From a virus, in IMG/VR virus record IMGVR_UViG_3300045988_116587, positions 1 to 59,801 of that record: 59,801 nt of DNA. One strand, 5' to 3'. Shown here piece after piece: positions 1,404 through 2,149 of this stretch. The notes beneath the pieces are model-generated. The model saw only the letters and a program-made list of their open reading frames with translations. It did not search any database and was not told the DNA's origin. Numbering within the stretch: position 1 is the stretch's first letter; each line of letters starts with the position of its first letter. Position numbers and translations under genes: made by a program.

Positions 1404-2149
1404 TTCAAACATGGTCAACTCAGTGAAGATGGATTTTTCAGTCCTGCTGAGATGCAGCGGTGAATAAGTAAGGTTGATTCGGGATACTGGCTCAACCGAT
1501 CCTTTCTGCCGGGAGTGATTCTGGTGGAGAAGACGGGAACCCGTCAACAATGCCCTGCAGTGTATCATCATAGAGAGGTCAAAAGCAGGATCCTTGTGGT
1601 CAGCGATGAATAGACGCCTGCGGTGCAGGAATAATCCAGTTAGGTGAGCGGTGTGAGAGACCACGGACCGGCTGGAAAACTCAAACAAGCTGATTTGCCT
1701 TGAACCTGAGAAATCGGGGTATAACACAAGAAATCTGTTAAAGTAGCGGTATGGCACAGATGCGATATTTCTTTTGAGAGAGATGCATAGTCTCTTTAAA
1801 ATAAAGATATTCTGAAAGAACCGTGAAATTTACGGGTATCAATCCCGTGTGTGCTTTGACAGCGGTAAGAAGCCAAGGGTCGCAACCGGAAGCTCAGACT
1901 TATCGTCACGCTGGCCGAATATGATTCCTACTATGATGGATAATGGGAAACCATGACTGTGTTTGAAAAACCTTTGTTTTAATCAACATTTTGTATTTGT
2001 AGTACCTATTTCAAGTAAAAATGTAAAAAGTGGTGTTTTAGCTGCGGAGTCACCAAAAGAGTTACTTTCTCAGAGTTACAGATGGATGTGTCTAAAGAAC
2101 CGTAGCGGCACGGGAAACTGTTTTCAGACTTGCAGATTCCCGTGGACAT
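1404..2149 (+). ncRNA. Candidate large structured non-coding RNA (ROOL/GOLLD-like genomic context); class unverified
   Basis: About 750 nt with no credible ORF in an otherwise tightly packed genome, flanked by tRNA(-like) genes. Complementary segments include 1472-1477/1492-1497, 1532-1536/1541-1545, 1554-1559/1624-1629, 1777-1781/1791-1795, 1821-1824/1832-1835 and 2109-2115/2138-2144. Confidence 0.4.

Follow-up and report, generated by a model that had tools for sequence, protein, structure and literature searches.

What lies at positions 1404–2149 of the viral record IMGVR_UViG_3300045988_116587, whose positions 1 to 59,801 we analyzed in full (59,801 nucleotides (nt), hereafter the window)? 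An earlier note, made from the sequence alone, had suspected a large ornate RNA of the ROOL or GOLLD type, about 750 nt long, in a phage array of transfer RNA (tRNA) genes. We conclude with high confidence that positions 1395–1974 are a typical ROOL RNA in a typical context, and that its gene lies among the tRNA genes of a temperate, siphovirus-like phage of gut Clostridia. The ROOL half of that suspicion is borne out by a full-length match to Rfam family RF03087, by covariation and by the lack of a conserved open reading frame (ORF); the GOLLD half is not, as the window holds no match to GOLLD (RF01998).

The assignment is carried first by a cmscan search of the whole window against Rfam, the kind of check that the earlier note had named; at 1395–1974 (+) it gave ROOL 353.8 bits, where the gathering score is 99.1 (E 4.4e-81). 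This match spans model positions 1–574 of 574, is not truncated, and is the sole strong non-tRNA match in the window. Mean ROOL length has been given as 581 nt (Weinberg et al. 2017, PMC5737381), and the element measures 580 nt here. Its minimum free energy corresponds to a z-score of -4.45, none of 100 shuffled sequences being equally stable.

Second, we analyzed the homologues of the element. A search of IMG/VR with the terminase returned 80 loci (L numbers below denote individual loci), 23 of which carry a ROOL homologue that is 70–99% identical, occupies the corresponding position ahead of the terminase gene and, in all 23, lies within a tRNA array. Six of the 23 were confirmed as full length by Rfam, with 265–381 bits. 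We projected the Rfam consensus structure onto an alignment of 22 distinct sequences (the window and 21 distinct homologues). Under this structure 75% of the cells are paired, and 57 pairs change on both sides, compared with 31.8 +/- 2.9 in shuffles, none of 500 of which reached 57; in controls with the 3' partner slid by 1–3 columns, 12–28 pairs change on both sides. RNAalifold, applied independently, recovered the same helices with 66 compensatory pairs and corrected several 1-nt registers. Covariation among the homologues, amounting to 57–66 base pairs (bp) with compensatory changes across the 22 sequences, supports the ROOL fold. The gene and the landmarks of the fold are:

1395–1974, + strand: ROOL RNA gene, given as the span of the Rfam RF03087 match
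1405–1416, + strand: 5' strand of the closing helix P1, pairing with 1955–1966 (RNAalifold consensus, four pairs with compensatory changes; inverted repeat)
1955–1966, + strand: 3' strand of P1 (RNAalifold consensus; inverted repeat)
1757–1808, + strand: variable linker, 52 nt, unalignable and of differing length among the homologues (alignment columns 375–448)

A variable linker closed by a conserved AAGUAGC... / ...GUGAAA helix is a trait of the family, and the window displays it. The linker is flanked by GUAGCGGUAUGGCA on the 5' side and by UUCUGAAAGAACCGUGAAAU / UUCUGAAAGAACCGUG on the 3' side, and is closed by the Rfam consensus helix 1746–1750/1820–1824. Within it lies a hairpin at ~1775–1797 (AGAGAGA/UCUCUUU), which the 97% identical locus L006 retains by means of two compensatory changes (AGUAAGA/UCUUAUU); the linkers of more distant relatives are unrelated in sequence, and the hairpin belongs to the subclade of the window.

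The complementary strings quoted in the earlier note all occur where it placed them. GGTTGA 1472–1477/TCAACC 1492–1497 and GACGG 1532–1536/CCGTC 1541–1545 are part of the covariation-supported fold, and AGAGA 1777–1781/TCTCT 1791–1795 is a real hairpin, namely that of the variable linker. The proposed long-range pairing of CCTGCA 1554–1559 with TGCAGG 1624–1629 has to be given up: the two strands pair elsewhere (1553–1559 with 1453–1460, and 1625–1629 with 1617–1621), with compensatory changes in both helices. CCGT/ACGG and ACGGG/CCCGT at 1821–1848 had been regarded as mutually exclusive; the ACGGG/CCCGT hairpin (1831–1836/1844–1849) exists and covaries, but CCGT 1821–1824 pairs with 1746–1750 instead. 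CACGGGA 2109–2115 and TCCCGTG 2138–2144 do form a hairpin, but one that lies outside ROOL.

Third, we compared the element with the published quaternary structure. Few natural RNAs are known to build cages without protein, and ROOL is among them: ROOL env-120 forms a D4 homo-octameric hollow cage ~280 Å across, with bridges B1–B6 and the linker disordered inside (Kretsch et al. 2025, PMC12286853), and the same cage is reported for ROOL-Efa and ROOL-Firm (Ling et al. 2025, as given in the commentary PMC12515178). The env-120 bridge residues were taken from the supplementary tables and sequence and placed in the window by local sequence context rather than by number, the recovered sequence comprising 650 of 659 nt. 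Their counterparts are:

1434–1440, + strand: B1 counterpart, hairpin loop UUUUUCA (intermolecular kissing loop in env-120), invariant in the 22 homologues
1710–1713, + strand: B2 counterpart, GAAA tetraloop (env-120 G364–A367, A-minor donor); its stem 1705–1709/1714–1718 covaries
1617–1629, + strand: B3 counterpart, P7 hairpin CCUGC/GCAGG, with CG to UA changes at two pairs
1653–1659, + strand: B4 loop GUGAGAG, partner in a kissing loop or pseudoknot; UGAG 1654–1657 is complementary to CUCA 1680–1683
1680–1683, + strand: B4 single-stranded partner CUCA, complementary to UGAG 1654–1657
1880–1884, + strand: B6 counterpart, loop UCGCA (env-120 L18, where G565–C566 form a symmetric bridge); UCGC 1880–1883 is invariant in the 22

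The B1 loop is complementary to GAAA 1814–1817, or to GAA 1818–1820 in the env-120 register, both within the partner region GAAAGAAC (1814–1821), and the GAAA loop of B2 is likewise invariant. B3 is a "daisy chain" bridge formed by the P7 stem-loop in the published structure (PMC12286853). B4, first reported as a covarying pseudoknot and later shown to be intermolecular in the cage, reads GAGA/UCUC in most relatives and GAAA/UUUC in L034 and L032 (loop GAAAG, partner UUUCA), which constitutes one compensatory event. Because the loops for B1, B2, B4 and B6 are present and conserved, and because B4 is compensated, homology gives good grounds to expect that the ROOL RNA of the window would assemble into the octameric cage.

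Where, then, does the RNA begin and end? The array contains five tRNAs called by ARAGORN and further tRNA-like units, all on the same strand as ROOL:

515–586, + strand: tRNA-Ile (UAU), first gene of the array (ARAGORN, Rfam)
728–809, + strand: tRNA-Tyr (GUA) (ARAGORN, Rfam)
878–960, + strand: tRNA-like, anticodon loop enlarged to about 14–17 nt (Rfam tRNA 43.0 bits; fold)
1060–1140, + strand: tRNA-like, 18-nt anticodon loop (Rfam tRNA 41.5 bits; fold)
1144–1218, + strand: aberrant tRNA-like (ARAGORN "Lys-ttt", anticodon at position 28; fold)
1327–1403, + strand: tRNA-like adjoining the 5' end of ROOL (ARAGORN "Gly-ccc"; cloverleaf fold)
2150–2223, + strand: tRNA-Gln (UUG), canonical (ARAGORN, Rfam)

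The interval is accordingly bracketed by tRNA or tRNA-like units, as first noticed: the element at 1327–1403 and the canonical tRNA-Gln at 2150–2223. The former has acceptor, D and T arms, and an anticodon stem of 6 bp with a loop of 9 nt (UAUCCCUCU), which departs from the canonical 5-bp stem and 7-nt loop; it has no Rfam tRNA match at E<1. Because this element stops at 1403 and P1 opens at 1405, position 1404, the start chosen in the earlier note, is probably the true 5' end of ROOL, and the mature RNA probably extends from 1404 to about 1970 (~570–580 nt). The T arm and acceptor strand of a tRNA or tRNA-like unit abut the 5' end of ROOL in 7 of 13 lineages, and at the 3' end the next tRNA begins at an offset of -6 to +11 nt in L008, L016, L056, L034, L029, L032 and L124. 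Of the ~750-nt RNA originally proposed, the part from 1404 to ~1970 therefore stands as ROOL, while the remainder is read as a separate, structured leader of tRNA-Gln:

1975–2149, + strand: structured 5' leader of tRNA-Gln, 175 nt; the Rfam ROOL match stops at 1974
2109–2144, + strand: leader hairpin CACGGGAA / UUCCCGUG, 5 nt before the 5' end of tRNA-Gln
985–1059, + strand: paralogue of the tRNA-Gln leader, consisting of UAGCUGCAA ... UUGUAGCGGCA, a hairpin and UGGACAU; it precedes the tRNA-like unit at 1060, with no ROOL nearby

We exclude 1975–2149 from ROOL because it lies outside the model, is conserved only in the four nearest relatives (97–100% identical), is not unusually stable, and contains a module that recurs without ROOL. 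As a whole it folds no better than shuffles (z -1.30); its terminal part with the hairpin, 2094–2149, reaches z -3.06. The module (985–1059 and 2036–2149) has the order UAGCUGCGG ... AAAGAACCGUAGCGGCA, a hairpin with differing stem sequences, UGGACAU, and then the 5' end of a tRNA or tRNA-like unit. Its duplicated sequence can be written UAGCUGC(AA/GG) ... (UU/CC)GUAGCGGCA. Read directly from the sequence, a putative helix GCUGCGG/CCGUAGC is replaced by GCUGCAA/UUGUAGC in the paralogue, a change from GG/CC to AA/UU that would keep the 7-bp helix. Since the paralogue precedes a tRNA-like unit in the absence of ROOL, the module belongs to the tRNA unit. Hairpins of unrelated sequence occur ~5 nt upstream of tRNA-Gln in other clades, and the 45 nt upstream of 43 array tRNAs are more structured than controls (median z -1.36 versus -0.12; Mann-Whitney p = 1e-4).

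It is unlikely, though the best placed of the other explanations, that 1404–2149 is one ~750-nt RNA in which the ROOL core carries a 175-nt 3' extension displayed outside the cage and possibly joined to tRNA-Gln. The 97–100% identity of the spacer among the four closest relatives and the stable hairpin at its end would fit such an RNA, as would the 161-nt spacer of the same organisation in L023, L020 and L019, and 3' fusions that include a suppressor pre-tRNA leave octamer formation undisturbed (commentary on Ling et al., PMC12515178). Against this, the ROOL model and P1 close at 1966–1974, a tRNA lies within ~10 nt of ROOL without any spacer in the seven loci named above from L008 to L124, the same module stands before a tRNA-like unit that has no ROOL, and the spacer as a whole is indistinguishable from shuffles in stability. 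We therefore retain the reading of ROOL followed by a pre-tRNA leader.

The module also accounts for part of the recurrence of the heptamer GTAGCGG, which the earlier note had located correctly at 300, 1018, 1743 and 2102. A fifth copy lies at 57883, and the whole-window count of 5 against 1.83 expected, reached by 3 of 100 shuffles, is borderline; what is striking is that four copies crowd into 2 kb on the same strand. Two of the four come from the duplicated leader module, and another is the conserved core of ROOL (AAGUAGC). The remaining copy, at 300–306 (+), lies outside both, in a stretch (263–361) conserved only in L003.

The tRNA-like units themselves form a coherent group. All four (878–960, 1060–1140, 1144–1218 and 1327–1403) have good acceptor and T arms, three of the four a good D arm, and all have non-canonical anticodon regions; in 1144–1218, the acceptor stem is perfect and the T arm present, with a short D region and an irregular anticodon region. 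Several of the loops are pyrimidine-rich (UCCUUUCUU, UCACCUCGUCU, AUCCCUCUCUUUU). As several anticodon loops are both enlarged and pyrimidine-rich, the four units are unable to decode normally. They are all kept in the 97–99% identical relatives, and L023 and L020 have a similarly enlarged C/U-rich loop in the tRNA-like unit that abuts ROOL. These units might punctuate processing, act as decoys or be decayed genes; a literature search on phage tRNA-like elements with enlarged anticodon loops returned nothing relevant. A pairing of the loop of 1327–1403 (CCUCUCU) with AGAGAGG at ~1572–1578 of ROOL was considered and dropped, as inspection by eye showed the complementarity to be lost in the L023 homologues.

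A ROOL cage functionally coupled to the tRNA array, serving as a carrier, protector or decoy platform for phage tRNAs, is in our judgment very unlikely. Under such coupling, tRNA precursors or processed tRNA-like units could be attached to or enclosed by the cage, for instance as a defence against host anticodon nucleases.

The weakest explanations can be dealt with briefly. Region 263–2246 contains only short ORFs, the longest being an antisense ORF of 128 amino acids (1371–1757) and a + strand ORF of 95 amino acids (1963–2250), and the view that none of them is credible holds. The two ORFs are present, but that either encodes a protein is scarcely conceivable, given that the + strand ORF passes right through tRNA-Gln, that substitutions are compensatory in RNA helices, and that the longest antisense open frame, 145 codons in the window, shrinks to 107 and 92 codons in L003 and L006, which are 97–99% identical, and to ~75 in most others, leaving no conserved ORF among the homologues. 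Equally remote is the idea that the interval is another large structured RNA, or merely decayed tRNA genes: the surrounding tRNA array does include several degenerate tRNA-like units, but the ROOL match is full length, ARAGORN found no transfer-messenger RNA (tmRNA), and in the Rfam searches GOLLD, HEARO, group I/II introns, RNase P RNA and tmRNA all failed to reach their gathering scores across the whole window and gave nothing at E<1 within 200–2400.

Based on these observations, we propose the following course of events for the ROOL gene. First, ROOL would share a + strand transcript with the tRNAs and tRNA-like units, as is suggested by their common strand and by the lack of an internal promoter or terminator; co-transcription of ROOL with tRNAs has already been suggested by Weinberg et al. 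(PMC5737381). Second, tRNA-processing enzymes would set the ends of ROOL, a proposal based on the tightness with which tRNA structures abut ROOL in relatives: (i) RNase Z-type 3' processing of the tRNA-like unit 1327–1403 would create the 5' end at about 1404, and (ii) RNase P cutting at tRNA-Gln +1 (2150) would release the 3' side, after which the 175-nt leader would be trimmed back towards P1 or kept as a tail. Third, the RNA folds into the ornate multi-stem structure closed by P1 (1405–1416/1955–1966), which is the step that the model match and the covariation demonstrate. Fourth, eight copies would form a hollow D4 nanocage as env-120, ROOL-Efa and ROOL-Firm do, with the linker 1757–1808 inside. 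Finally, the RNA would be accessory, horizontally exchanged "stable RNA" cargo that travels with the tRNA operon of the phage and is dispensable for making virions.

Several points weigh against this account. Transcription, end processing and cage assembly are steps that we infer. Promoter and terminator scans were no richer than in shuffled sequence, which leaves the transcription unit undefined, and in the subclade of the window the downstream tRNA is 175 nt away rather than abutting, which makes the mature 3' end uncertain. As the covariance model aligns them, only 120 of the 153 consensus pairs are canonical in the window; most of the non-canonical ones are 1-nt register shifts that RNAalifold resolves. 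For the cage, the pairing of B1 amounts to just 3–4 bp and lacks covariation within the clade, and the loop for B5 lacks 4 nt relative to env-120, which prevented mapping of both the bridge and the stacking adenosine.

The accessory character of ROOL is suggested by its distribution. The window is a temperate siphovirus-like phage, with genes for the large terminase subunit (3534–5276), portal, major head protein, tape-measure protein, tail protein, endolysin and a serine integrase. Neither ROOL nor the first 12 kb has a match among GenBank phages (blastn, megablast), and PHROGs holds no family for the small ORFs 2–262, 2377–2550, 2579–2881, 2971–3243, 57817–58641 and 58841–59437. Bacterial genome contigs were scanned with a 14-base pattern, whose matches were nearly all due to chance; 1 of 120 loci, L124, holds a real ROOL. 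This locus is Clostridium sp. AF27-2AA (NZ_QUFI01000001.1), with a chromosomal (prophage) ROOL at L124 3281–3852 that is 79% identical to that of the window and flanked nucleotide-tight by tRNAs on both sides (L124 3217–3933). The host of the window phage would thus be a member of the Clostridia, an assignment that comes from this single genome. Because the ROOL of L124 is 79% identical and the neighbouring terminase just 34% identical in protein sequence, the comparison suggests horizontal exchange of the ROOL/tRNA cassette between otherwise distant phages.

Several closer relatives, in turn, have lost most of the RNA. Only the first 155 nt of ROOL are left in L009 (8010–8162), whose terminase is 87% identical, and only the last ~50 nt in L017 (4258–4305) and in L024 and L027 (8960–9007); other relatives have tRNA arrays without ROOL. 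Since close relatives keep mere remnants, and since the cassette also occurs with a very different terminase in a Clostridium prophage, ROOL is, to judge from these genomes, accessory and can be lost. Upstream of their terminase genes, the ROOL-less loci L035 (7527–7611) and L063 (6585–6669) have a skipping-rope RNA (RF02924). The stretch preceding the packaging genes acts as a slot whose cargo of non-coding RNA varies.

Two further elements of the window deserve mention. The first is a 150-nt element at ~365–514 (+), directly upstream of tRNA-Ile, which starts with AUAGUCAGUAAAGACU, contains UUGGCGGUAA.ACGAUA.GAA.CUUAAAUAACCGC and terminates in a hairpin, AACCGUC/GACGGUU. Rfam yields nothing for this element at E<1, and it is 74–88% identical in L124 (terminase 34% identical), L055, L015 and L009. 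A pattern scan located it in 16 viral contigs, and in every contig inspected a tRNA or tRNA-like unit lies, by eye, just downstream, the identity of that unit differing between contigs. Sequence variation is too small for covariation analysis; the element may be a conserved array head, made up of a promoter and leader or else a structured RNA not yet described. The motif AARAACCGTR, with 8 copies on the + strand against 0.62 expected, was considered as an array-wide signal and dropped, as each of the five copies found beyond the RNA island falls within coding sequence. The second element is a type II hammerhead ribozyme (RF02276) at 55499–55566 (-), which scores 54.2 bits (gathering score 37) and lies in the 81 nt that separate the - strand ORFs 55568–55846 and 55151–55486; - strand Hammerhead_II matches are also found in L035 and L063.

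Published work already covers the ROOL family with its fold, its quaternary structure and its association with tRNAs and prophages, and the locus is an ordinary new instance of ROOL that brings nothing categorically new. Its modest contribution is a close bracketing by tRNA units that hints at how the ends arise, together with natural deletion variants and a cultured lysogen. About two dozen related gut-phage genomes with ROOL, sister genomes with ROOL remnants or a skipping-rope RNA, and the lysogen Clostridium sp. AF27-2AA make up a useful natural comparison set, in which the dispensability of ROOL and end formation by RNase P and RNase Z can be tested.

The processing that we propose has counterparts among unrelated RNAs. 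The species 1 and 2 RNAs of phage T4 are stable small RNAs in a tRNA cluster that are released by RNase P, and 3'-end formation of MALAT1/mascRNA is guided by a tRNA-like structure. In each case a non-tRNA RNA flanked by tRNA or tRNA-like units is matured by tRNA enzymes, and the same logic would hold for ROOL, where it is deduced from the abutting units; the RNAs concerned are not related to ROOL. GOLLD (RF01998) is also a large ornate RNA of phages and prophages that lies beside tRNAs and forms an RNA-only cage, in its case a 14-mer (PMC12286853), but its sequence and fold are unrelated to those of ROOL.

Compared with its own family, as represented by env-120, ROOL-Efa and ROOL-Firm, the RNA of the window differs in minor points only and in no family-defining feature: B4 is GGUA/UACC in env-120 and UGAG/CUCA here, the B5 loop is the shorter by 4 nt, and in the subclade of the window the 3' end is followed by the 175-nt tRNA leader instead of an abutting tRNA. 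It shares with the family the full-length model match, a length of 580 nt against a mean of 581, the covarying helices, the variable linker at the same position, the conserved loops of B1, B2, B4 and B6, and a location in a tRNA array carried by a Bacillota phage or prophage.

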